A stretch of 61,756 nt of DNA, the filler included, from Basidiobolus ranarum (taxonomy: Eukaryota), in assembly GCA_040143965.1 (NCBI GenBank). It is 13 parts of 13 records of this genome, joined end to end, with 100 filler letters (N's around TTAATTAATTAA, not from the genome) between each part and the next. Parts side by side here need not be neighbours in the genome. Positions count along the whole stretch, not along the records: positions 14,314 to 18,979 come from JASJQH010008748.1; 12 more parts are not named here. One strand, given 5' to 3'. Positions 14,214 to 52,589 of this stretch are shown here, piece by piece (the first letter of the stretch is position 1; the number at the start of each line of letters is the position of its first letter). A program made the position numbers and the translations under genes. The notes below the pieces were generated by a model. It searched no databases. It was not told the DNA's origin and saw only the letters and a program-made list of their open reading frames with translations.

Positions 14214-14330
14214 NNNNNNNNNNNNNNNNNNNNNNNNNNNNNNNNNNNNNNNNNNNNTTAATTAATTAANNNNNNNNNNNNNNNNNNNNNNNNNNNNNNN
14301 NNNNNNNNNNNNNCGGGGAACTTAGTATAG

Positions 14331-15400
14331 TAGTGGCCAATAGAAAAATCAATCTTGCAGCAAAGCAGTCCACGATAATTACTCCAACGCCCCTTCAAAC
14401 CAAATCCACCGGTGTGTTGGTTCCCAAAAAACGTGCGTCCCAAGCGGTGGAAGCCTCACTTCCTTCGCTAGAGAATCCCCTCAAAAAGGTTGCTGGCAAC
14501 CAAAGGTTAAATGTAGAGGCGGAGTCGGATTGCTCACCAATGGTTATTGATACACCAGATGCGGTGCAGGACTGGGATAACTTGGATGCCGAGGACGAGT
14601 TTGATCCATTAATGGTGTCTGAGTATGTGGTAGAAATCTTCGAGTACTTGAGAGAGCTTGAGCCTCAGTATCAACCAAATCCAGAGTATATAGATAATCA
14701 GAAAGGGCTCTCGTGGAAAATGCGGTCCATCTTGGTGGACTGGTTGATTGAAGTTCATCAGAAATTCCGCCTTTTGCCCGAAACACTTTTCTTTGCCATT
14801 AATATCATTGATCGGTTCCTGTCGCAGCGCGTTGTGTCTTTAGTCAAGCTTCAATTAGTTGGACTTACGGCCATGCTGATTGGAGCCAAGGTGGAAGAGA
14901 TCATGTGTCCTTCAATCGAGAACTTCATCTACATGGCTGATGGAGGGTATACTGAGGAAGAGGTTAAGAAGGCCGAGAGATACATTCTCCAGGTGTTAGG
15001 GTGGAACATGAGTTACCCTAATCCCCTCAACTTCTTGCGACGAGTCTCCAAGGCCGACTCTTACGATGTCCAAACCAGGACTATCGCCAAGTACTTGATG
15101 GAGGTCTCGTTGCTTGATCATCGTTTCCTACCATATCCACCATCTCAAATGGCAGCATCTGGGCTCTATCTAGCCCGTAGCATACTCAATCGTGGCTCGT
15201 GGGACGCCAACCTCATTCATTATTCCGGGTATTCCGAGGAGGAGCTCCTTCCAGTTGTAAATATTTTGATTGATTCTTTAGCCAAGCCTGTCAAGTATGA
15301 AGCTGTCTTCAAAAAGTATTCCATCAAAAAATTGATGAGAATCAGCATTTTCGTCAAGGAATGGGTGGACAAGCGTATGCCATCCACACAACTTGCATAA
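14331..15400 (+). CDS. G2/mitotic B-type cyclin (5' exons missing at contig start)
   Basis: DPLMVSEYVVEIFEYL, cyclin box MRSILVDWLIEVH..FRLLPETLF, KLQLVG..AKVEE, PNPLNFLRRVSKAD; acceptor tatag at 14326-14330; stop at 15398-15400. Confidence 0.96.
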
Positions 15401-15976
15401 CTTGGCCATCCACGTCAGTTACTCGTTCGTCCATGCCATGGATCACTAGACCACTTCATTTGTATATAGAGTAGTCACCGTCCTTCATCTTGAATAGAAT
15501 CTCTTTTTTTCTGCCCAAAAAGATCCCAATCCATCTGAAATAAATAATCTCGTTAATATCGCAGTACATAGTTATGCCTTGTCTCCTGCTGATCCTAAGG
15601 AAGCCACACTATAAGTCTATGCGAAAATCCGGGATGGCATGCTCGGTTGATCCTTAGATAGCAATTCTAACTCTTTTATACGCAGTGATCATATACCGTC
15701 GCTGTTTGATTGGCAGGCTCGTAGTGTGGGGAGATAACGAATCTTCCAAAAATTTCGAATAGGTCGGATGATCCAACTCAGTGTGACCGTTACCAATTAT
15801 TCCAAAAATTCCTGATTACTTCGTTTAATTGGAATTTCTTGGGAGGATCGATTCACCATTTAACTCTAAGAATTGACTCCCTAGGTTCGACATTTGGTTT
15901 CTGTTTGTCCTTTACATTGACATCGTGGTCTGCTAAAAATATCCCACCTGTTTCGATGGTTCTTCTTGCACAGATT

Positions 15977-17782
15977 ATGGAAGCTAATCAAGATATCGAA
16001 TTTGTTAGCCCTCCTTCACTGTCACTCCAATGTCCTATGTAGGCTTTAAGCGAATTTTTTAATATTTGAATTTTCTAATAATAACCCTTACTTCTTAAAG
16101 CTGTCACGACGTTTGTAAAGATCCTCTCATAACCTCAGTGTGCAACCATTCGTATTGCGCTGCATGTATTTATCAGTCGCTTGACCTAGAACCTTTTTGC
16201 CCCTTATGTAGAACTCGAATTCAACATGATAGTAGGCCTGCCTTCACAATTGAATGTGCATGAAATATTACGTTACTAATACTTTGTCTTGACAGTGCTT
16301 CATTCGAATCTTGCTTTGAATAGTGTTATAGGTGAGCTACCAGTATATTGCCCAAACAAAAAATATGGATGTCTCTCTGTTATACGCCATGACACGCACA
16401 AACATCACGTAGCGTACTGTCTCTATACCCCCGGGGTTTGTGAGCATAGTTCATTGGGATGCAATTTCAAAGGTATTTGATTGAAGTTTTAATTTTGGAT
16501 GGTTTTACTGTTTCGAATACTTACATACTTATTTATCCGTGGAACAATAGGACCAAGAAAAGATATTGAGAAACACATGAAGGAATGCGTTTTCGAAAAG
16601 TTCAAAGCTTTTATTGAAAAGAGCAATTCCCGCATTCAACAACTTGAGGAAAAAGTCACAGTAAGTGAAAGTTAATTGAGTTGAATTTTTGTTTCTAGCT
16701 GAACTGAGTTTTTTACTCCATTTATCAGGAACAAGGTGCAGAGCTAAAACGCTTGAATTGGGTTATTGAGCATTCACAACTCTCAACAAAAGAGATAGGC
16801 GAGGAATCTCCCCAATCCCCTCATGCACTCTTAGATGATTCTTTGAAAACTGACTTGGACTGGATTCATGGTGATATTGTTTGCCAACGAACCATCTCAC
16901 ACCATGCCTGTGGTGTTACCTCTTTGGCTTATAGCTCTGGTAAATTGTACGCTGGTGCCCATGATGGTTCAACAAAAATCTTTGAACCTGAGACAGGAGA
17001 CTTGATCGAAGACCTTCATGGCCACAGTATGTCAGTATGGGCACTTGCTGTTCATCAAGAAAGTAACCGATTCTTTAGCGCTGGATCTGACGGGACTATC
17101 AAGGCTTGGGAGTCTTTCGAAGACGGAAGTGAATGTATAGGCGTATTGAATAGTCATACTCATAAGGTCTATGGACTATTGGTTTCCAACAATCGGGTCT
17201 TTTCAGCATCTTCTGATAAAACGATTAAGGTTTGGAATCCGTTAACTTTAGAAAACGTAGCTACTTTCAGTGGCCACACGAATCATGTGAATGCTATAAT
17301 TGATCTATATGATGGTCGTATTGCTAGTGCTGGTAGTGACCATACAGTAAGAATCTGGGACGTTTCTAGCGGCCAGTGCTTGCAAACCATTAATATTGGA
17401 AACTCTGAGGTGTTGGACTGCTCCGCTGGTGATGGACTACTCTTTGCCTCTACCTACGATTCGTTGATTCACGTGTACGATCTCAATGACTTCAATGGCG
17501 TTAAAACACTCTCTGGTCATAACTGGGAAGTCTGGCAGCTCTCATACGCACGCAACGCCCTGTTTAGTGCCAGCTTTGATCATACAGTGAAAAGATGGGA
17601 CACTAGGAATTGGTCTTGTGATGCTACACTGAAAGGCCACAAAGCGTTTGTTCATGCCATGACTCTTGGTGACAATAATCTTATCACCGGATGTGCTGAT
17701 CGCACCATCAAGGTATTTAACTCTTACGGTATCTTTCCTAGATTTTGTACTAACATTTATGGTGGTTTAGATTTGGAAGTAA
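15977..17782 (+). CDS. TRAF7: TRAF7-like E3 ubiquitin ligase: RING + TRAF-type zinc finger + coiled coil + 7 WD40 (491 aa, 6 exons)
   Basis: Exons 15977-16038, 16101-16231, 16296-16472, 16551-16660, 16729-17712, 17771-17782; all GT-AG and in frame. C3HC4 RING CPIC..CNHSYCAAC..CPLC; CPNKKYGC..H..C and CEHSSLGC..H..C zinc fingers; seven GH..WD-type repeats ending IKIWK*. Confidence 0.85.
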
Positions 17783-19149
17783 GCCTGTAGTCTGCACTAT
17801 TAGCACAACACTTGCTTTCTGCTTAAAAGACCCATTAAACAGAACGTGTCTTACGGTGGGTCAGCAAATTTCTATATCTATCATCTCGTCAAAGCCATGA
17901 TATGTATAATTTCATCATTTCAATATTTATTTTCTGTGTACAAAAGAGTTTACTATCGCATTTAGAGCTTCTCTCGTTCCAGTTGAGATATCTTAGCGCA
18001 CCATTGTTGCAACCATATTTTCAAGCCACCCCAATTCAATCAGTAGCGGGATAATATTTGTATTCTTTGAATAATCATCATTTAATAAACACAAGCCATA
18101 TTCAGCACACAGTAGGTTAGAATGAGTGAGCCTTTCCTCCTCAGCTCTCCCTCTACTTTCCGCTTGATGAGTTGTGGATTCTATATGCTAGATTCGGCAC
18201 CTCTGGTCAGTTACAAAGAATAAAGAGACATCTTGAGCTAGGTACCACTGTTTATTCATCGTGTTAATTATAGCCATCATAAAATAAGAAAGTGTTGGGC
18301 TATCCTGTGGATTCCGTTAGAGTCGCACATCGTATCTCCGTCTTGTGACATAGCAAATCTATACAAATCAATTCTACAAACGACATAAAGCCTAGGAAAT
18401 ACCAACCGAATGGCTAGAGAATACGGGCGCTTCGGAAGAAACACTGGAGTTTGATGCAGCTCAATAACGGGCAAATTCAAATCTACACATTCCAACTTTG
18501 GCGATTAGGGTGCTGATAGTCATCCCACGAATCGATGGTCAATTCGTGTGGGACTTCTTTCCATATGGACCCAAGAAATTGAACCTCTTCCAGTGTGATA
18601 TTGCGCATGTTAGTGTCTATCAGCTCTACATTAGCCTAATATAGATATTAATATTGTTATTGTTAATAAGGTGGTGTAGGTGGTCTTGGCTTCTAATGGC
18701 AATGCTATCTCGGGTCTGGTTTGATTGACAGCAATTGTATAAATATACCAACTGACCATCGAATTATAGTCATCATCATCATCATCAACGTTGCAATCTT
18801 GGGCCTGGTTCTCGGAAATCCGCCCGCTACCTCTGCTTCTGCCTCGTCCTCGTCCTCTGCCTCTGCCGGTCCGGGGGCCGCGGGGCCGCGCCGCCCGCGC
18901 CGCGCGCCCCCGCCGGCGGGGGGCCGCGGCGGGGTCGGGGTGGGGGGCGGCGGGCGAGGGATGTGTGTGGGGTCGGTGGNNNNNNNNNNNNNNNNNNNNN
19001 NNNNNNNNNNNNNNNNNNNNNNNTTAATTAATTAANNNNNNNNNNNNNNNNNNNNNNNNNNNNNNNNNNNNNNNNNNNNGTAGAATGTTTGCAAAGCATA
19101 AGTCAATTTGGCTAATTTTCCATTGCCATCACACGTTGTCATTGAAAAT

Positions 19150-33472: not shown

Positions 33473-34538
33473 CGCTTTGGTTAGTTTGAGGTATCTATAG
33501 CAATTCTCAAGTATTTATCTGTATTCTGGATCTTTGAACATGTATTCTAATTCGACTCAGAATATATGGAGTTGGCAAATTAGAATCCTCTCAGATAGTA
33601 TCTACAAAATATATTTGTATCCCTCAAATTTGTCGAAACTTCAATAAAGTGGTATCATGTAGGTGTTCGACTGCAGTATTTTGACTAAAATTAAAACCGA
33701 AACGCTCATTTGTTTGAAAATACCTTCTGCTCCGCCCTATAAAGGTTTACTCATGAAGCAGACCCTATTACAAGTATATGCTAATCTATCTCAAGTTTAG
33801 TTTGATAGAGGAGCTAGAGAGTAAGCGTTACCATTCGGGATATTATTTATGATGATATTATGTACATCAAACCAGAATTTGGTGCCATAAAGTTTTGGTA
33901 AAAATATAACCAACTGAACCTCCCAAACTCCACTTTCTTACTTTGGTTTTCATGTACCTATTTTAAAATCTAGGTAGAAGTCTAAATGTCTTCTAATTAA
34001 GGTGTCGAACCCCTTTTTGCTTCTTTTTTGTCTACATTGAGCTTAATTCATTTGACATTATAAGGAGGTCCTTTAAAAAATATAGCTCATGTTACATCTG
34101 GCAATACACATCAGTAATCGTTTGTGATCAGGACCAACGTGAAAAGAGACCATTATAGATATGTATGGACGTAGTACTATGAAGAACATATACCATTTTG
34201 AAAGCCAATTTTATCAAACTTATTGGTACGGGTGAAAATATAACGAAACCTCAAAAGTTAGAGTTTTATAAATGTGAACATCGCTGTTTGGTAGTAAATC
34301 ACGTAATCAGTAGCAAGACTTGAGTTATTGTTATCAAGACCTGATGAAGTAACTGATCGATAGGTTGTTTCTAATTTGTCAAAATTAGTTACACAATGTT
34401 AGTAAATGTTGTATATATATATTAACCAAGCATTTCAAGTGGCGCACTAGAATTCAGAATCTTCAACCTATTAAGATAGAGTATTACAAAATAGTAGCTT
34501 CTACAATAAAACAGTAAGCTATTAGTAATCAACTGGAG

Positions 34539-34548
34539 TATATATAAG
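34539..34548 (+). promoter_or_regulatory. TATA box of the OYE gene
   Basis: TATATATAAG about 50 nt upstream of the ATG at 34591. Confidence 0.6.
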
Positions 34549-34590
34549 GCGAAGCTCAGTACTTTTCACAGCAATCTACATTCATTCACT

Positions 34591-35688
34591 ATGTCATATA
34601 AACTCTTTGAACCCATTCAGCTAGGACAAAATAAATTGGAGCACCGCGTTGTGCTCGCTCCATTGACACGTTTCCGTGCCAACGACGAAGGAGTACCTCA
34701 AGATATCGCTGCATCCTACTATGAGCAGCGTGCTAGCAAAGGTGGGCTTTTGATAACAGAAGCAACATTCATTTCTCCTGATGGTGGTGGATACCCTAAT
34801 GTCCCTGGAATCTATTCCTCAGCCCAAATTGAAGGTTGGAGAAAAGTGACTGATCGGGTACATAGAAAGGGAGGAGTCATTTATTTACAACTCTGGTACT
34901 TGGGTAGAGCAGCCGTACGTGCATGCTTACCAGATCAGCAGCAGCCCGTTTCCGCTTCAGCTATAGCTATTAATGGTGAAGTTAGACCTGGGATGCCGTA
35001 TTCGATACCAAGGGCATTGGAAATAGATGAGATACCTAGTATTGTTGATTCTTACAAGCAAGCAGCCTTAAATGCTATAGAGGCAGGTTTCGACGGTGTC
35101 GAGATCCATGGTGCCAATGGATATTTGATTGATCAGTTCATCAACTCTAATAGCAACAAGCGTACTGACAAGTATGGTGGTTCAATTGAGAATCGATCCA
35201 GATTTGCTCTTGAGGTCATTGACGCTGTGACAAAAGCCATTGGTGAAGATAAGACTGGCATTCGGTTCTCACCCTACAGCCCCTTCCAAGACATGAAGGA
35301 AGAAACTCCTGTAGAAACATTCTCTTACTTGACTACACAGATTCAGAATCAGCATCCAAATATGGCATACCTTCATTTCGTAGAAGCGCGTATTGCTGGA
35401 AATGCGGATGTTGATGCCAAGGAGTCTCTGTCATTAGAACCATTCCAGAATATCTGGAAAGGTCCATTCATCTCGGCGGGTGGATACACCTCACAATCTG
35501 CAATTGAGACTGCACAGAAAACTGGAGCGTTGATTGCCTTTGGTCGCAAGTTTATTGCCAATCCTGACTTACCTGAGCGTATTAAGAATGACTGGGAGCT
35601 AAACCCTTACAACAGAGATACCTTCTACACTTCAGGGCCTGGTGGGTATACCGACTATCCGTTCTACACAAATAAAGTACGCAGTTAA
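34591..35688 (+). CDS. OYE: Old Yellow Enzyme family NADH:flavin oxidoreductase (ene-reductase), intronless, 365 aa
   Basis: LFEPI.LG..LEHRVVLAPLTRFRA, GGLLITEAT, AGFDGVEIHGANGYLIDQF (catalytic H/N/Y), RTDKYGGSIENR, FGRKFIANPDLP. Confidence 0.97.
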   Translation: MSYKLFEPIQLGQNKLEHRVVLAPLTRFRANDEGVPQDIAASYYEQRASKGGLLITEATFISPDGGGYPNVPGIYSSAQIEGWRKVTDRVHRKGGVIYLQLWYLGRAAVRACLPDQQQPVSASAIAINGEVRPGMPYSIPRALEIDEIPSIVDSYKQAALNAIEAGFDGVEIHGANGYLIDQFINSNSNKRTDKYGGSIENRSRFALEVIDAVTKAIGEDKTGIRFSPYSPFQDMKEETPVETFSYLTTQIQNQHPNMAYLHFVEARIAGNADVDAKESLSLEPFQNIWKGPFISAGGYTSQSAIETAQKTGALIAFGRKFIANPDLPERIKNDWELNPYNRDTFYTSGPGGYTDYPFYTNKVRS

Positions 35689-38277: not shown

Positions 38278-41200
38278 ATGCCGGTCTTTGAGCAAGTTCT
38301 GGTAAATGCTGCAAAGGACTTTGCCACAGGGGATTTAAAGGTAACCAGTCATTTCTCTGAACAGAAGAACGTTTGTGTTGAACTAAAGTCGGGCACTTCT
38401 GAACTTATTTGTTAGAGCGGTTATGGGAATTACCTAAAAGCTGCTGTTACTTTGATTCATCAACTTTCCGAGGAAGTAGTATTTGAGGCTAAAGGTATGT
38501 ACACCATTTTCTAGTATTTAAACTCAAATGAGTGAAAGGATTATTTGTATTATGCTACCATTGCCAAATAGCTAAACTAAGCCTATGCTATTACCAGACA
38601 GAGTTACTCCGCTATCAGACCATGTTTACAATCTTTTTACACTATCCCACAAATGTCTTCAAACTGCCGAAGAGATCATTCGAAGTCAAACTATTATCTC
38701 ACCAGATACATTTTTGTCAACTTCTTTTGAAAGTGAACTTGTAGTTTCTCGTTCTGATGAGGAAAATGCTATCCTTATTGAAACTACCCTTCCCCTCATC
38801 CCACTATCCCCACTAATTCAGATGTCAATCATTTATTCCAATTCACTCGCTTCTTCTAGTCACAAATTAGCACTGATTAACCATTCAAAGCAGTCCAGAA
38901 CTTCAGAGAGCTTGCACCGACTCACCGAAGATGTGGATATTCATCGGAGTAATCTTGATACTGTCAATACCCAAATACAATCGGTAACTGATGTATTGAT
39001 AACTATGTGGAGCCCAGATGCTATTGCGAAGCAATTGACCATTATTGAAACTCAATTGTTTGGCCAAGTAGTTATCCCAGACGATCTGATTCCTTCAGAA
39101 GTTACATCCCCGAGTGTACAAGGGTGTCTGGATTTCCACAGATATATTGAATCTAGTTTTACGCATCAAATCATTGCAGGTTCTGAGGTGAGCACTAGCA
39201 TATCCGACACTCCCGACACCCCCGACACTCATCGTTCAAATATCATCATTCATATTATCCATACCGCCTATCAATTACTTCATACATACCGAAATTTCAA
39301 CAGTTTTGCTGGTGTTGTAAAAGCACTGACCAACATAGAAGTTCTCCGATTGAGTAAATCTTGGAAACTAGTTCCGCATAAAATGAAGCAAATGTTAAAT
39401 GATTTGATAATGCTTACAAAGTCAAAAGAGAATTATACTGAATATCAATTATGGTTAGAAACAATACTGAATCAATTGGATCCTGGAGTTCCTTGGATGG
39501 AGCGACATGTGCATAGCATCGTTCACTCGATCAATAGGAATAACGAACATGATCCTTTGGAATCTATGAAAATATTATCTCGACTTCAAAAAATTCCACC
39601 CTCATCAATCAAGACACAACAAGGACGCAAGAGCTTACAAAATGATCTTTCTCTAGACTTACAACATAATGGCAACGATCTTGGATTGCACCATTGGCTA
39701 CTCTCTAGAGTATTTATGAATCGTTATCAATTGTGGGAGGAAAGTGTGGAGTATGAAAGATTGCGTAAAGATGAGATAATTCCGAAATTTATGAAAGATG
39801 GACAAGTGGTTGAAGTGGAAGTAAGCGGACTGATTGAAAGCGAAGATACACAAGAGTTCACTAACATTGAAGATTTGACTCGATTTTTCCCCAACGAAGG
39901 AGAAGCATCTGTCATGAGTTTTGAGCAAATAGAATCTGTGGACGATATTCTTACTTATTTAGACCAGGAAGTGGTTGAGCCAATCCCAGCGAAAATCGAA
40001 GAGGAGACTGAGATATCAACTCCAAATGTTAACGCGTTTCCTTCTTCTCCTCTATCTCCGTTGCCCAGCTCCTTGAGAATTCAAAATATGACGCAAAATC
40101 CTACACAGGAAATAGAAGATATTGAAGATGCGTGGGACAATATTTCTATCCCTTCAATAGACGAATGTGATAGCAAGAAGCCTGAAATCGCCTCGCCATA
40201 TCTTTCCGAAACTTCACTTACTGATGAGCATAGCCTTCCTCAGAGTTCGCCGTTCACTTACGGTGACATCTCTGAGGAAAAGTTAATGCCATTAGAGAAA
40301 CAAGTGCCGACATCCTCTGATTTCATTACCAGTGTTGATGTGGAGTCCTCATTTCCCTTTCAACCTATGAATTTTTCGGATAATCCATGGGACAGTTTCT
40401 TGGAAGGAGAGAGTTCTTTAGGGATTCATTTACCTAGTGTTGCCACCAATCCTCACGAATCTTCACCACATAAAGAGCCAGAGAATATTCATTCTACTCC
40501 CAAATTCTCATTCATTGCCAGATCATTCGATGATGATGATCTGCTAGATAGTACTTGGATGAGATTAGAATTACCTACTTCAAGTTACTTGCCATATAGC
40601 TTCAGTCCCTCTTCTGTGGTTTCAGAAATCGATGACCAAGCACAACATGAGAATTTGATTGAATTTGACCAACACAATATTGACTTGAATAAGCCCACTT
40701 CCGCTATTCCTCAAGTGCATGAACTGTCCGAAGAAACGTATGACTTAAATTACCAAGAGGAATGTGAGGAACAATCAGCCAACACAATTAGTTTCAAAGC
40801 AGAAGGTGATGAAGAAATAATCGAGGATCAAGAGAAACTTACAAGAATAGAATCGAAGGTTGACGTCGCTGAGATAGCCGATGATGCTTGCTCAGAAAGT
40901 CTTGAAGTCATATCTGAAGACGGGGATTTTGTAGAGATATCTAGTTTAAAAAGTCACCAAGGTCCTTTAGTGCCTAGTATATCGAATGAACTCGATGAAG
41001 CAGCATCTTTATCTTCTGATGGCTTACCCACTGAAGTTGTTATCGCTCAGTCAGAGAAGCATATTGAATCATTAGAGAGGACTTCTCTTGTTCAAGTTGC
41101 CGAAGAAAAAAATCGCCACCCGGAACACAGTACAAACCAAGAGATGCTAGTTACCAGCGATATAGAAATGGAGAGAAAACCTAACCAAGAATGTAATATA

Positions 41201-42775
41201 GATACTCCAATAGGAAATGCGAACATAAAGACTCTTTTCTTTGACAATAAGCCAGAGTTACCGGCATTTGATTTTGAAGGCTTACCTGGAGAAGATTTGA
41301 TTCACGAAGACCTTGGCCCTTTCAGTGATTCGCATGCTGTGGAAGAGCTGTTGACATTTGACATTGAGAATTATAACCCCTCTACCGCTATCGTCACTCA
41401 AGATGAGGAATCTTGCATCTCAGAAATAAGTATTAAGGACAGTGAACATCTACCCGAAGTTAACACTGAAATCAATCAAGGAAATCTAGATTCTGAAGAA
41501 AATCGTACTGGAGAGCAATCGGAGTATGCTTCAAACACCTCAATTTCAGGATATCATGAAGTAAATCAATCTGTCGAATCCGAATCCGAGTCCAATCCAG
41601 TCTTGGTAGAGATACCAGCCATCGAGTATAATATCGTGGATACTTCCAAAGCAGCCACCAATTCTGAGTTGGATTGTAGCACGCCATTAGATGTAGAGAT
41701 GCCAACCGCTGAAATCCTTCAGACGCTAGATGAAGATGATACAGACATTCCATCTAATGATGTTCAGATTGTCGATTTGCTTGAGTTTAATGATTCCAAA
41801 GAGCCAATGATCATGAACTCAGTACTAGACATGGAATCTGAGCCAACTAAAGGTTTGGAATCTTTCAGTGAGAGCAAACTGATTCCTGAGTGCATAGAGG
41901 AGACATCGAGCAAGGAAATGGAGCATCTGTTTAAGAGAGAACTTTCCAGCAATGATTTCGATGTAAGGAAAAGCCTATTTGATATTCAGTATGGCGAATT
42001 AGCGCAAGCATCATTGACCTTAGTTGATACTTCACCGCCACTAGAGAAACTTATAGGTATTTCGGATGACATAGTTGGTAAAGCATGGTCAATTCATCAG
42101 ATAGATGCCGAAATGTCCTCTTCCCTAGATCAAGCTCATCATAACGCTTATATTTTATCTTCGAAAATCCTTGAAAATTCCAATATTGAAACAAATAAGA
42201 TATCGATGCAGGAGATCAGTCAAAATACTCTCTCTGAAGACGTTCTTGATCCTATCATACTAGATGATTGCGACTCTAATTCGGATTCCAAGGAAATATC
42301 TCCGTTTGACGATTCTTTTATGATCACTGGAGAGGACCTCCTGGATGATCCAGAATCAATAGTGCAACATGAAATGTTAGTTGCTGATACTTCCAGTAGA
42401 GTAAATCTAATTCCAGGCTCAGTGATCCCTCAATTAATGGAAATGTTGCACCAAGATGTGATAGAAAATTCGAAAGACGAATCCTATGCGTACCTCATTA
42501 GTGATTCGGAAGATGAAGCAACTGATGGTGAGCCTTTGATGGAGGGGCCGTTAGGAGAAAGAGAACATTTAATTGACTTGGATAATCATTGCGACCCAGT
42601 ATGCGACTCAGTATGCGATCTGGTGTCGGCTAGTGAGGTTCCATTAATCATGGCTACAACAGCTAATGATGATGACATCCCCAGAGACATCGATGAACAG
42701 GCAATATCAGACGCTAGTACTCAAGCTACTGCTGATGACTTGGAGAAATCAGACTTTAAGCTTTTCTTCCCAGAG
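38278..42775 (+). CDS. RasGEF (CDC25-type) domain protein with MIT-like N-terminus and >1000-aa acidic disordered tail (3' truncated, at least 1440 aa)
   Basis: Exons 38278-38340, 38416-38494 and 38598 to contig end. RasGEF motifs WSPDAIAKQLTIIETQLF, RSNII..I.TA..L..YRNFNSFAGVVKAL..VLRLSKSW, NYTEY, PGVPWM. Confidence 0.85.
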
Positions 42776-42875
42776 NNNNNNNNNNNNNNNNNNNNNNNNN
42801 NNNNNNNNNNNNNNNNNNNTTAATTAATTAANNNNNNNNNNNNNNNNNNNNNNNNNNNNNNNNNNNNNNNNNNNN

Positions 42876-48235: not shown

Positions 48236-49295
48236 ATGCCTTTGAATATTCTCAAGGTGAAAATCCATGTTCCTCAAGAAACAATCAATCTCTTTGGAAG
48301 TCCGGAAGAATCGAATGGGAGTGTTCTGAGGGGCACAGTTCTCATCAAAGCTTACAAGAACATAAAGATCCACTTGCTAACCATAAAGTTTGACGGTTGG
48401 ACCGTATCCAACGGGCCATTAGGTAAACCTCAACAATCTTTTTGCATCATTCCCCACCCACTTTTGCTCACATCACCCCTTTTATCGATTCGTAGGCATC
48501 CAAACTTTCAGGAAGTCCAAGAAATCCTTGACCAGTAGTCAGATGAATCTTCTTGAGCCAGAAAGAGTCCCACTGCATGTAAAGAAAGGGATCCATTCTT
48601 TTCCTTTCGAATTTGCGATAGATGGAATGTCACTAGAGACGGTGCGTACTCGTTACTTTAAGACCAAATATTTCTTGACAGCACAAGTGAAGCGGACAGT
48701 ATTCCCCACCATCACCTCAACCTACGAGGTGCCAATAAACCGGTTACCCCTAGAGATCCCACTAGGAGAACCGGGATTCATATCGATTCAGGAAAATTGG
48801 GAAAGTTACATCAAGTACAAGATTCAATCTAACAAGAACACCTATCATGTGGATGATTTCATAACGTTGAATTATACATTCCGCCCACTATTGGATACTC
48901 TGGAAGTGAGTACTATCTATCATTACTTGGTAGAGTATGTCACCTATTACAAGCACAAAACTGGCCCTTCAACTACTAAAGAGCGTACCATACTACTGAG
49001 GACATGCCAACTCAATCGTCGTTTAGAAGGTGAATCCTTTGTTCTGACCCGGCCAGAGTACATACCAAGCCCGCAACCAGATGTTGACAACGAGCATATT
49101 CAAGTCAAACATAAATTACACATGGTATTTGTCTTGAAATGTGGCGATGTTCAAAACTCAATTACTGTTACCACACCGATCCACTTGATTAATGGAAACG
49201 AGTCACCATGTCATCTGCCAACGTACCAAGAATCGCAAATATCGGGTGCGGTTTATGTTCCACCACCCTCCTATAACACCCTTGTTTGTAACTAA
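48236..49295 (+). CDS. Alpha-arrestin (Rsp5/Nedd4 adaptor), 328 aa, 1 intron
   Basis: Exons 48236-48422 and 48496-49295. LFGSPEESNGSVLRGTV, GIHSFPFEF..G..ETV..Y.LTA.V.R, I.VKHKL; C-terminal PY motifs LPTY and PPSY. Confidence 0.9.
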
Positions 49296-51615
49296 AAAGC
49301 TAAAGAAAGACCGATCTCTATCCTTTTTGAATACTCTATTAGTTAGTTGCTTGTTCCGCACGTGTTTTGTATTGGATCTTACAACTTAATTCTTTGTAGA
49401 TTCCAACCTGTATCTAATTACCTAATTACTCATGTCTTTTTGGGACTACTCGCATATACTACTTTATATCTTTTATGAATATCTTATTTATCTAAATAAT
49501 TTACTAGTGAAAGAAACACAAGCATAATCAGCCTGACACTTATCTCCCTTCACAACCCCACTTAAACCTGCCAAACATTTACAACAGAGATCACTAAGCC
49601 GGAGAATAGAACCCCTACCTTGATCTACATCTTTTCTTAAGCGCGGTAGGTACAACTACTCTGCTGGTGAAAATACACGCGGTTCTCCAGCTGATGCCAA
49701 GGAATATCACGCCAAGTATTCTCTCTGTTGTGTCAGTTTTCTTGGCATCGATCTTTTGAAATGCAACCATCCCTCTAATAAACTTAACTCTTGGAATCTT
49801 TGCCATTTTGCTAGCTTATATTGGCGCATCCTTAGCTGCAGCTGTCCATATGATCACAACAATACTGCATCTATATGTATATTTCAAGATATTGCATATC
49901 CAACCTGTGCTAATAGCGGTAATAAAGCTGTATATTATCGGTACGTTTTCTGTTTCTTTGGAGATAAAACCATGAAGCAAATGTGAGAGTATTTATTAGC
50001 ATAACAGTGTAGTGTCCCATATCTTGAAAAGAGTAGGTGGAGTATCTTCTAACAGTGATTTCAGGGGGAGTGTCAATTTTGGAACTTTATTAAATCACGG
50101 AAATTCGAAGGAACTGAGACCTCCAGCAGTTGGCGAATCGATCGAGCGGAATGAACCTGTCAACGATTTAAGCAGCTACACGCTGAGGTGTGGAATTTTT
50201 TGTTAGTGACTGTAAGTGTTTGAATGGCAGCTGGGGAAGCTCCAAAATGTGGTTTCTTCTAGATTACCTCACACAAAATCATCAATAAAATCAACCAATC
50301 ACTGCTTACTATAAACACATACGGTAAACAAGTTTATTACCGCTCCTCAAGTGTCAATGAAAATATAGAATCTTGACGCTCTTACCGACCTTGAATCACT
50401 TGGCAGAGCTGTGGAGCAGCCTAGATTGTCGATACCTGATAATCCCATCCGGTCAAACAATTTAAAGGGTTATAAACTGTTTCTTGTACTCCAGAAACCG
50501 GTTTTTGATGACTGCACCGTAAACAGGTATATATCAACTTATAGGCGGATTACTAGAGTAGCAGCCCATCTATTTTATACTTAGCCTATTGACATTCTTC
50601 TAGCTTCAGCTTGAGACTGTCGTATCAATTTCTTGATCCCTGAATAGTACACGAAAACTTGATTTAATAAGGAAATTGAACCCATCCTGAATTGGCTATA
50701 ATCTTTTAGCCTGCATATAGGTTTGTTTAGATTAAGAATTTATCCGGACTCTAAGCCGGAGTAAAGCAAGAATGTCATGATATTTCAAGCTAGACCATGG
50801 ACATCCTGGTGGAGGCATTGCTAGCACATCATTAAGATAAGACATAGCATCTGCCTTGGATCTTTTAACTCTCAGGAAGTAGGAATCTTGGCAATGCTAT
50901 GCTGTTGATAACATACCGTTTTCAGAGCAGTTCCAGTAACTATATGTCTTCCGCTTCAAATCTTTAGAATCTATGGCTCAACTTTCCCTACGATATTAGC
51001 ATGAATTTGATCATTTAAGCCCGTATCGATCTTCAAACATATATCAACTTTACAGTCTTTGTGTTTACTCACGTAAGAGGAGGAACCTTCCAGCGTACGC
51101 ATCTAAATTAACAGGAATAGTGCAGCATTCTAGAACAATCAAACAATTAAAAGAGGATCTTGAACTTTAGCCTCCTCTAATAATAAGTAAAAGGCAACGT
51201 TGAATGAATTTACAAGTCAATCAGCAACCAGCGTAAGGACACGCACTAATCACGCTTCCACTGTGGAATATCTCAACTATATGGAGACAATTAGAATTTG
51301 TTAAGCGAAATGAATCAAATCTTCATTTTAACCATGTATAATTGGAAAGATATGTATCACAGTACAGTAAATGTATATTTCAGTTAAGCTTAAACTGTAT
51401 ATCGACACACCAAGAACAGACTTAAAACAAATCCATTATCATATTTACCCTTCTGCTTCTGATATTAGTTTAATGGATCTTTAGAAATCACTTGAAATAT
51501 CTTCCAATATAAAAAGGTGTGCTTAGGGTCGTGTTAAATTCATTTTGCTGGGCTCGTTTATCTTTAGCCCTCGCGTTCTTAATTCTGCATATTATTTAAC
51601 GTTTACTGAGTTGGC

Positions 51616-52270
51616 ATGCCCGATTCTACTACTATTCCCGAGGTATGTACGCCATATCATACCTACGACATTGAATATGTAGCCAAGGTGCTAAGCACTG
51701 ATATAGAGAAAGGTCTCAATTCGCAACAAGTTATTGAGCGTTTCCAAGAGTACGGTTCTAATCAAATCTCTGGTAATGGAGGAGTTAGTCCCTGGAAAGT
51801 TCTTTTCAGGCAAATTGCCAATGCCCTAACTATTGTTCTTGTGGCTGCAATGGCAATTGCCTTCTCTGCGAAGGACTGGGTAGAAGGCGCTGTCATTGGT
51901 GTTGTTATTGTTACCAATGCCTCTATTGGATTTTTTCAAGAATACCGTGCTGAAAAGACCATGGACTCTCTTCGTAAAATGTCATCTCCTACATCACGCG
52001 TCATACGAGATGGGAACTTGGTTCACATCCCCACTACAAATCTTGTCCCTGGCGACCTGCTTCTATTTGAGAATGGAGATGTTGTTGGTGGTGATGCTCG
52101 ACTCATAGAGCAGTTCAACCTGGAGGTGGATGAAGCCTTACTGACTGGCGAATCCCTCCCTGTTCCAAAAGTTCTTGAGACATTAAAGAATCCCAATGAA
52201 CCAATTGGGGATCGTATCAATTTGATCTACTCCAGTACCACTGTCACTAAAGGTCGGGGTCGTGGTATTG
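51616..52270 (+). CDS. ENA1: ENA-type (P2D) Na+/K+-exporting P-type ATPase, 5' part
   Basis: GVSPWKVLFRQIANA, GFFQEYRAEKTMDSLRKMSSP, LVPGD, VDEALLTGESLPV, IGDRINL.YSST.VTKGRGRGI. Confidence 0.88.
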
Positions 52271-52589
52271 NNNNNNNNNNNNNNNNNNNNNNNNNNNNNN
52301 NNNNNNNNNNNNNNTTAATTAATTAANNNNNNNNNNNNNNNNNNNNNNNNNNNNNNNNNNNNNNNNNNNNAAGTAAATTCCGATTGAGAATAATTGATAA
52401 TATCTTAGTGAATTATAAGATAACTAAGTACTAAGCTATATATGACTATATAGGTGTTTAGGCAATGCTAATTTCAACAAATACCTGGCAGAATGCAAGC
52501 CAATGATATTATGATGGTTCTCTGATGGCTTTGCAATCCCAAAGGATGGATCCAATCCAGATCAAATTGGTTTTATTTTTGTTAGAGTA

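Follow-up and report, generated by a model that had tools for sequence, protein, structure and literature searches.

Does an early-diverging fungus carry a ligase of the kind known from animals as TRAF7, and what would its presence there say about the age of that protein? The question is raised by a gene of Basidiobolus ranarum (GenBank assembly GCA_040143965.1) at positions 15956-17782 on the + strand of the window, which is the whole 61,756-nucleotide stretch that was analysed, 13 records joined end to end with filler between them; the gene lies in the part contributed by JASJQH010008748.1. In excerpts of four papers (PMC11216086, PMC10424150, PMC13614401, PMC11218536) and in a 2025 review, TRAF7 is treated as a vertebrate or mammalian signalling protein that is mutated in meningiomas and a developmental syndrome and whose substrates are still being worked out. 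On its sequence, the locus was confirmed as a real, correctly spliced gene of B. ranarum, and its product is probably a member of the TRAF7 family, a predicted E3 ubiquitin ligase built of RING, zinc fingers, coiled coil and WD40 repeats. The public record already contains the gene, its splicing and its name, none of which is new: the coding sequence spliced from the ATG at 15956 equals KAK9686908.1 exactly (498 amino acids; also UniRef100_A0ABR2VNR2), which was deposited as "E3 ubiquitin-protein ligase traf7 [Basidiobolus ranarum]".

The gene comprises six exons and five short introns, with GT...AG borders in all five. A first-pass annotation of this DNA had joined scattered open reading frames across five GT-AG introns into one protein of 491 amino acids from the ATG at 15977, and joining the exons confirmed this product. 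Because the spliced coding sequence is identical to KAK9686908.1, that gene model is the deposited model except for the start codon. The same annotation had remarked that single open reading frames reveal a WD40 protein and nothing else, which is the case, as the longest of them (16708-17790) carries just that part. Residue numbers used here follow KAK9686908.1 and are 7 higher than those of the first-pass annotation.

The domains follow one another in the order expected of TRAF7. The RING (residues 25-64) matches zf-C3HC4_2 at E 4e-10 and 39.8 bits, against a Pfam cut-off of 27, and its zinc ligands (C26, C29, C42, H44, C47, C50, C61 and C64) are invariant in 20 of 20 aligned relatives, as are P62 and R65, the Arg after the last ligand. 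Behind the RING stand two invariant Cys2-His-Cys sets, C90/C97/H109/C113 and C120/C127/H139/C143, which match the Pfam families Sina_ZnF (E 5e-6) and zf-TRAF (E 3e-4); in eight relatives scanned, Sina_ZnF was matched by all eight and zf-TRAF and zf-TRAF_2 by seven each. Further, the RING and zinc finger 1 (query residues 12-117, about 105 residues) align with the RING and zinc finger 1 of TRAF6 (7l3l_B, E 1.3e-8; also 3hcs_A). An AlphaFold2 model made with a 20-sequence alignment, with a mean predicted local distance difference test score (pLDDT) of 90.2, arranges the chain as the RING, two small fingers, a helix (149-182), a disordered segment (184-209) and 28 strands forming seven four-stranded blades. 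The modelled helix is about 34 residues or about five heptads long, with a block-mean pLDDT of 88-93, and hydrophobic residues recur at a/d spacing (145, 148, 152, 159, 162, 166, 173, 176 and 180), these positions being conserved. The propeller was modelled at a pLDDT above 90, has a sequence periodicity of 7 x 42 residues, matches seven-bladed propellers at Z of about 40 in structure comparison, and carries in blades 6 and 7 a signature that is invariant in all 20 relatives. No MATH family appeared among the best 25 of 49 Pfam matches of the whole protein, nor in the 14 matches of residues 1-219. The C3HC4 RING, TRAF-type zinc fingers, coiled coil and exactly seven WD40 repeats that the first-pass annotation had claimed are thus borne out, respectively by the RING match above cut-off with its eight invariant ligands, by the two invariant Cys2-His-Cys sets with significant Sina_ZnF and zf-TRAF matches, by the heptad pattern of the modelled helix, and by the 28 strands in seven blades with their 42-residue periodicity.

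Polar core residues of coiled coils often determine oligomeric state. One such position may be noted in the helix, where Gln169 (at about 16735-16737 in the window) occupies an expected core position of the heptads and is conserved in 17 of the 20 relatives.

The connection to TRAF7 in particular, as opposed to RING-TRAF proteins at large, comes from the zinc fingers and coiled coil that separate RING and propeller, and from whole-protein comparison. A profile of the zinc fingers and coiled coil, built from eight relatives with the query excluded and run against all PDB sequences, ranked chain 8ims_B, the coiled coil of human TRAF7 (PDB 8IMS), first of 88 matches (E 9.8e-9, 38.8 bits), with TRAF5 (5e-6), SIAH1 (about 7e-6), TRAF6 (1.6e-3) and the TRAF3 coiled coil (8e-3) lower down. 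Exon 4 alone (36 residues) returned the same chain as the second of four PDB matches, at E 0.13, aligned from the final His and Cys of zinc finger 2 into the first heptads. The first-pass annotation had aligned five stretches with human TRAF7, and the one that leads from zinc finger 2 into the coiled coil is reproduced by both of these matches to 8ims_B. In the ESM Atlas the nearest clusters, all at 0.97, are animal TRAF7 (Chordata, 668 amino acids; Mollusca, 595; Chordata, 734; 221-225 of 256 features), along with a fungal 'traf7' cluster, likewise at 0.97 (228 of 256 features), followed by a foraminiferal WD-repeat cluster at 0.93 and by PRP19 and U-box WD40 ligases at 0.85-0.86. The profile, the exon 4 match and the ESM Atlas are three independent kinds of evidence, and they point the same way. 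The collinear domains, the profile match and the ESM Atlas clusters together support what the first-pass annotation proposed, a TRAF7-type architecture in an early-diverging fungus.

The likeness to animal TRAF7 is one of order, with a C3HC4 RING, TRAF-type zinc fingers, a coiled coil and seven WD40 repeats that replace the MATH/TRAF-C domain. The fungal protein differs in size, at 498 amino acids against the 595-734 of the animal clusters. To our knowledge, no TNF-receptor or NF-kB context is to be expected in a fungus.

Relatives of the protein span several lineages. A search for homologues of exon 5, restricted to proteins of 180-574 amino acids, recovered the identical B. ranarum protein, then a partial protein of B. 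meristosporus (77% identical), and further proteins of 40-65% identity in the Glomeromycotina, Mortierellomycotina, Endogonales, Zoopagomycota, Entomophthoromycotina, Chytridiomycota and Blastocladiomycota. Additional collinear members occur in aphelids (Paraphelidium, Amoeboaphelidium), in Amoebozoa (Cavostelium, Protostelium, Planoprotostelium) and in Chromosphaera perkinsii, an ichthyosporean and as such a unicellular holozoan (excerpt of PMC6981761), whose protein aligns end to end with query residues 8-497 (35% identity, 348 bits, E 1e-118). All 20 of the 20 aligned relatives have this collinear protein, three of them from transcriptomes; these three (Cavostelium, Protostelium and Paraphelidium) have the full architecture, so that the RING and WD40 parts lie on one transcript in those organisms. 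'E3 ubiquitin-protein ligase traf7' is the name of 13 among the best 120 of 1325 matches in the profile search. Agreeing with the first-pass remark that yeasts have no known equivalent, no member from the Ascomycota or Basidiomycota (Dikarya) was among the matches listed in any homologue search, and the nearest Ascomycota cluster in the ESM Atlas is PRP19, at 0.85.

From 334 proteins, 46 rows (41 of them family members, 5 outgroups) were picked for an organism name or full length, most partial and most unnamed proteins being excluded, and a tree was computed quickly by maximum likelihood. It places the query next to B. meristosporus (support 100) in a zygomycete clade (97), and its order of Amoebozoa, Chromosphaera, aphelids, Blastocladiomycota and remaining fungi is that of the species tree, which favours vertical descent and disfavours contamination. 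Non-fungal contamination, which had been named at the outset as something that would undo the assignment, is thus disfavoured both by the position of the query within the zygomycete clade and by a gene tree that tracks the species tree.

Several of these relatives have peculiarities of their own. In the RING of Chromosphaera perkinsii, about 56 extra residues separate the sixth zinc ligand from the seventh (query residues 55-61), either as a genuine loop or because an intron was left unspliced in the gene model. The B. meristosporus protein, ORX93349.1, is deposited as partial, lacks the RING and the conserved C-terminal motif, and ends in a 34-residue tail resembling read-through of the counterpart of intron 5 (17713-17770 in the window); both ends of its gene model are probably in error. 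In Planoprotostelium fungivorum, PRP81779.1 has most of both zinc fingers missing, its RING being followed almost at once by the last part of zinc finger 2 and by the coiled coil, and either the fingers were lost or the gene model has a gap; a second protein from the same genome, PRP84197.1 (477 amino acids), falls in the same 90%-identity cluster. Four 'traf7' variants of 386-507 amino acids are deposited for a single locus of Entomophthora muscae, which suggests alternative splicing or alternative models. Lastly, in XP_012753288.1 of the dictyostelid Acytostelium subglobosum the RING and zinc fingers are replaced by an F-box-like domain (Pfam PF12937). The propeller of this protein shares 36% identity with that of the query (16729-17712 in the window) and carries the blade 6-7 signature, and in the tree the protein sits, on a long branch, on the family side of a branch with support 99, apart from FBXW7 and Notchless; here the family's substrate receptor may have exchanged its own RING for a SKP1-cullin-F-box (SCF) ligase.

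It should be noted that a number of results weigh against membership of the TRAF7 family. The alignment with human TRAF7 covers the end of zinc finger 2 and the coiled coil. Among the 150 matches listed in an exhaustive whole-protein search (at least 287 bits), none had the length of the animal TRAF7 clusters (595-734 amino acids), and an amoebozoan protein, from Cavostelium, scored 295 bits; 130 of the 150 are multi-WD40 proteins of at least 887 amino acids. Likewise, the best 120 of 1325 matches to a family profile (at least 349 bits) include no animal protein, with Chromosphaera at 568 bits. The 46-row tree includes no animal TRAF7 sequence. The N-terminal half alone is not TRAF7-specific in the ESM Atlas, where RNF151, TRAF4 and NRDP1-type clusters come first, at 0.90 or below, and the zinc fingers of the query fall under the curated Pfam cut-offs (zf-TRAF 21.9 against 27 bits, Sina_ZnF 27.2 against 32). 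The helix of about 34 residues compares with 87 (288-374) in human TRAF7 (excerpt of PMC11216086). Structure searches do not separate the propeller from other WD40 families: Foldseek and VIA-align on the whole model returned generic seven-bladed propellers, with the N-terminal half barely covered. By sequence, the whole protein matched generic WD40 chains in the PDB, with no TRAF7 propeller among the 60 matches listed, and a homologue search with the N-terminal part yielded eight proteins, none from animals. With protists among the listed matches and animal TRAF7 not, an orthologous relationship would mean that animal TRAF7 has diverged further than these protist proteins.

The same searches can be read in another way. 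Amoebozoan and ichthyosporean members are among the matches listed and animal TRAF7 is not, and the coiled coil is far shorter than that of human TRAF7; both would fit an old, Amorphea-wide family of RING-zinc finger-coiled coil-WD40 proteins that is a sister or paralogue of animal TRAF7 and not its one-to-one orthologue, working by the same general ligase mechanism but possibly on other substrates. Such a relationship is unlikely, as the top PDB match of the zinc-finger and coiled-coil profile is human TRAF7, ahead of the other TRAFs, and the animal TRAF7 clusters equal the fungal cluster in ESM Atlas score. Additionally, the holozoan member sits where the species tree predicts, and no second, closer animal family was among the matches listed in any search. 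The TRAF7-family ligase accordingly stays the favoured reading over a sister family.

A very improbable account is convergence, in which fungi and protists on the one hand, and animals on the other, independently joined a TRAF-type RING-zinc finger module to a generic WD40 propeller. In its favour are the promiscuity of RING, TRAF zinc finger and WD40 domains alike, the generic fold of the propeller, and an N-terminal half that resembles many RING-TRAF proteins to about the same degree. The specific match, however, falls where zinc finger 2 meets the coiled coil, outside both RING and WD40, and the whole protein reaches 0.97 with TRAF7 in the ESM Atlas against 0.85-0.86 with other RING or U-box WD40 ligases.

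That the protein belongs to the COP1, RFWD3 or PRP19 family, or that its model wrongly fuses a RING-zinc finger gene with a WD40 gene, can scarcely be credited: the COP1 RING does match the RING part (E about 3e-7), one Mortierella relative is recorded as 'Pre-mRNA-processing factor 19' and the junctions at the B. ranarum locus are drawn from sequence and homology, but the COP1 match is limited to the RING (query residues 21-84) in a family without TRAF zinc fingers, RFWD3 is in no listed matches, the PRP19 clusters stand at 0.85-0.86 against 0.97, and a frame that is continuous across five introns gives a product identical to the deposited model and collinear with all 20 aligned relatives, the three transcriptome-derived ones included. 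The first-pass annotation had itself named reciprocal best matches to COP1 or RFWD3 as grounds for refutation; the restriction of the COP1 match to the RING and the absence of RFWD3 from the listed matches speak against these families. Membership of PRP19 was rejected on a WD40_Prp19 score of 116 bits against a cut-off of 320 and on the presence of TRAF-type zinc fingers.

On the favoured TRAF7-family reading, the protein can be set beside better-known ligases. With TRAF6 and TRAF5 (PDB 3HCS, 7L3L) it shares the RING and first zinc finger, which align with TRAF6, and the zinc fingers, which match TRAF5 (E 5e-6); unlike them it has no MATH/TRAF-C domain and ends in a WD40 propeller. The Cys/His fingers match those of SIAH1/Sina, through Sina_ZnF in 8 of 8 relatives and through SIAH1 chains (about 7e-6), whereas SIAH goes on to a MATH-like substrate-binding domain and not to a coiled coil and propeller. 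COP1, RFWD3 and PRP19 share its general design of E2-binding finger, coiled coil and seven-bladed propeller serving as substrate receptor, but are without TRAF-type zinc fingers, and an excerpt of PMC10424150 distinguishes the TRAF7 RING from those of COP1 and RFWD3. FBXW7 and beta-TrCP offer the best natural solved propellers by sequence (FBXW7, 152 bits) and are among the top structural matches; they differ in having an F-box that docks to SKP1-cullin and no RING of their own, and the branch with support 99 separates them from the family.

Fungi possess Ras proteins and MEKK-type kinases, and mammalian TRAF7 offers a pattern for how the protein would act. On that pattern the RING would recruit a ubiquitin-charged E2, the zinc fingers would serve as a rigid spacer, the helix, as in human TRAF7, would join several chains, and the top face of the propeller would hold the substrate for ubiquitination. 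Excerpts of the mammalian literature describe the human TRAF7 coiled coil as a parallel trimer, with the zinc finger-coiled coil fragment trimeric in solution (PMC11216086), the propeller as binding MEKK2 and MEKK3 (PMC11218536), TRAF7 as belonging to the MEKK3-MEK5-ERK5 pathway (PMC10424150), and KRAS and NRAS as being ubiquitinated by TRAF7 and then degraded (PMC13614401). From these mammalian partners, and from the occurrence of Ras and MEKK-type kinases in fungi, a role in signalling control can be proposed: it is possible, though on balance doubtful, that the fungal protein controls the level or activity of a signalling protein of the Ras type or of a mitogen-activated protein (MAP) kinase cascade.

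The relatives in amoebae and Chromosphaera make the family older than animals. Members in fungi, aphelids, Amoebozoa and an ichthyosporean mean that its core job predates animal immunity and development, and that job should therefore be a basic one, such as the control of Ras or MAP-kinase-cascade proteins. Taken as a whole, the history that joins these observations has a probability somewhat short of even: a ligase of the TRAF7 kind would long predate TNF receptors and NF-kB signalling, going back to the common ancestor of animals, fungi and Amoebozoa, would have been lost in the Dikarya, would have held in its propeller an equally old substrate (a Ras-type GTPase or a MEKK-type MAP3K), and would have been re-wired to SCF in dictyostelids through an F-box. 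If this history is true, early-diverging fungi or amoebae would be simple systems for finding the ancestral TRAF7 substrate, which is relevant to human meningioma and CAFDADD syndrome. The residues that are invariant from amoebae to fungi mark the parts of the propeller likeliest to hold that substrate.

No discussion of a pre-animal origin of TRAF7, or of TRAF7 outside animals, and no link between TRAF7 and Basidiobolus was found in a literature search that did not cover subscription journals. A 2025 review of TRAF7 contains zero occurrences of evolution, ortholog, invertebrate, yeast, Drosophila and phylogen. The discovery is a modest one, as automatic annotation already applies the name traf7 to KAK9686908.1 and to 12 other fungal clusters. 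That early-diverging fungi keep a gene which the Dikarya have lost is a common pattern, and the result is a tidy evolutionary point of moderate interest to TRAF7 researchers.

The exons divide the protein largely along its domains. Exon 1 (15956-16038; all features are on the + strand) holds the start codon and the N-terminal lead-in through the first Cys-x2-Cys of the RING. Two in-frame ATGs lie 21 nucleotides (7 codons) apart, 15956 in the deposited model and 15977, where the first-pass model begins; the alignment of relatives does not choose between them, and the frame is open upstream to 15725. Intron 1 (16039-16100; 62 nucleotides, GTAGGC...AG) would, if retained, bring a stop at residue 29. 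Exon 2 (16101-16231) contains the remainder of the C3HC4 RING with its invariant zinc ligands and matches zf-C3HC4_2 by itself at E 9.9e-9, and retention of intron 2 (16232-16295; 64 nucleotides, GTAGGC...AG) would give a stop at residue 82. Exon 3 (16296-16472) runs from the linker helix through TRAF/SIAH-type zinc finger 1 into the first half of zinc finger 2 and includes the invariant residues C90, C97, H109, C113, C120 and C127; its Pfam matches are zf-TRAF (E 9.4e-5) and Sina_ZnF (E 9.8e-4), and its top PDB match is the zinc fingers of TRAF5. The length of intron 3 (16473-16550; 78 nucleotides, GTATTT...AG) is a multiple of three, yet its retention would place a stop at residue 133. Exon 4 (16551-16660) completes zinc finger 2 with its last His and Cys and opens the coiled coil, with its heptad pattern; this is the stretch that aligns with human TRAF7. 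Next comes intron 4 (16661-16728; 68 nucleotides, GTAAGT...AG; stop at residue 172 if retained). Exon 5 (16729-17712) takes the chain from the end of the coiled coil across the disordered linker (residues 184-209) and through almost the entire seven-bladed propeller (WD40, E 1.1e-37). After intron 5 (17713-17770; 58 nucleotides, GTATTT...AG), exon 6 (17771-17782) adds the last three codons (I-W-K) and the stop codon TAA at 17780-17782; homology supports this intron because the C-terminal 'TIKIW' motif of the family appears only after splicing. Introns 2 and 5 have yeast-like branch-point motifs, TACTAAT 19 nucleotides and TACTAAC 20 nucleotides before the 3' splice site, and the introns have a G+C content of 24-37% against 42.6% in the exons.

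The remainder of the window was surveyed through its long open frames. Directly upstream of the gene, on the same strand, a frame of 376 codons (14270-15397, +) matches Cyclin_N (E 2e-47) and Cyclin_C (E 3e-36). No Pfam match at E 1e-5 or better was obtained for three other frames, which are 222-450 codons long. Further long frames, all on the + strand, match an Old-Yellow-Enzyme-type flavin oxidoreductase (34510-35685), a RasGEF domain (38576-42820, a frame of 1415 codons), an arrestin C-terminal domain (48423-49292) and the start of a P-type cation ATPase (51610-52323), and the long-frame content of the window is that of ordinary eukaryotic genes.

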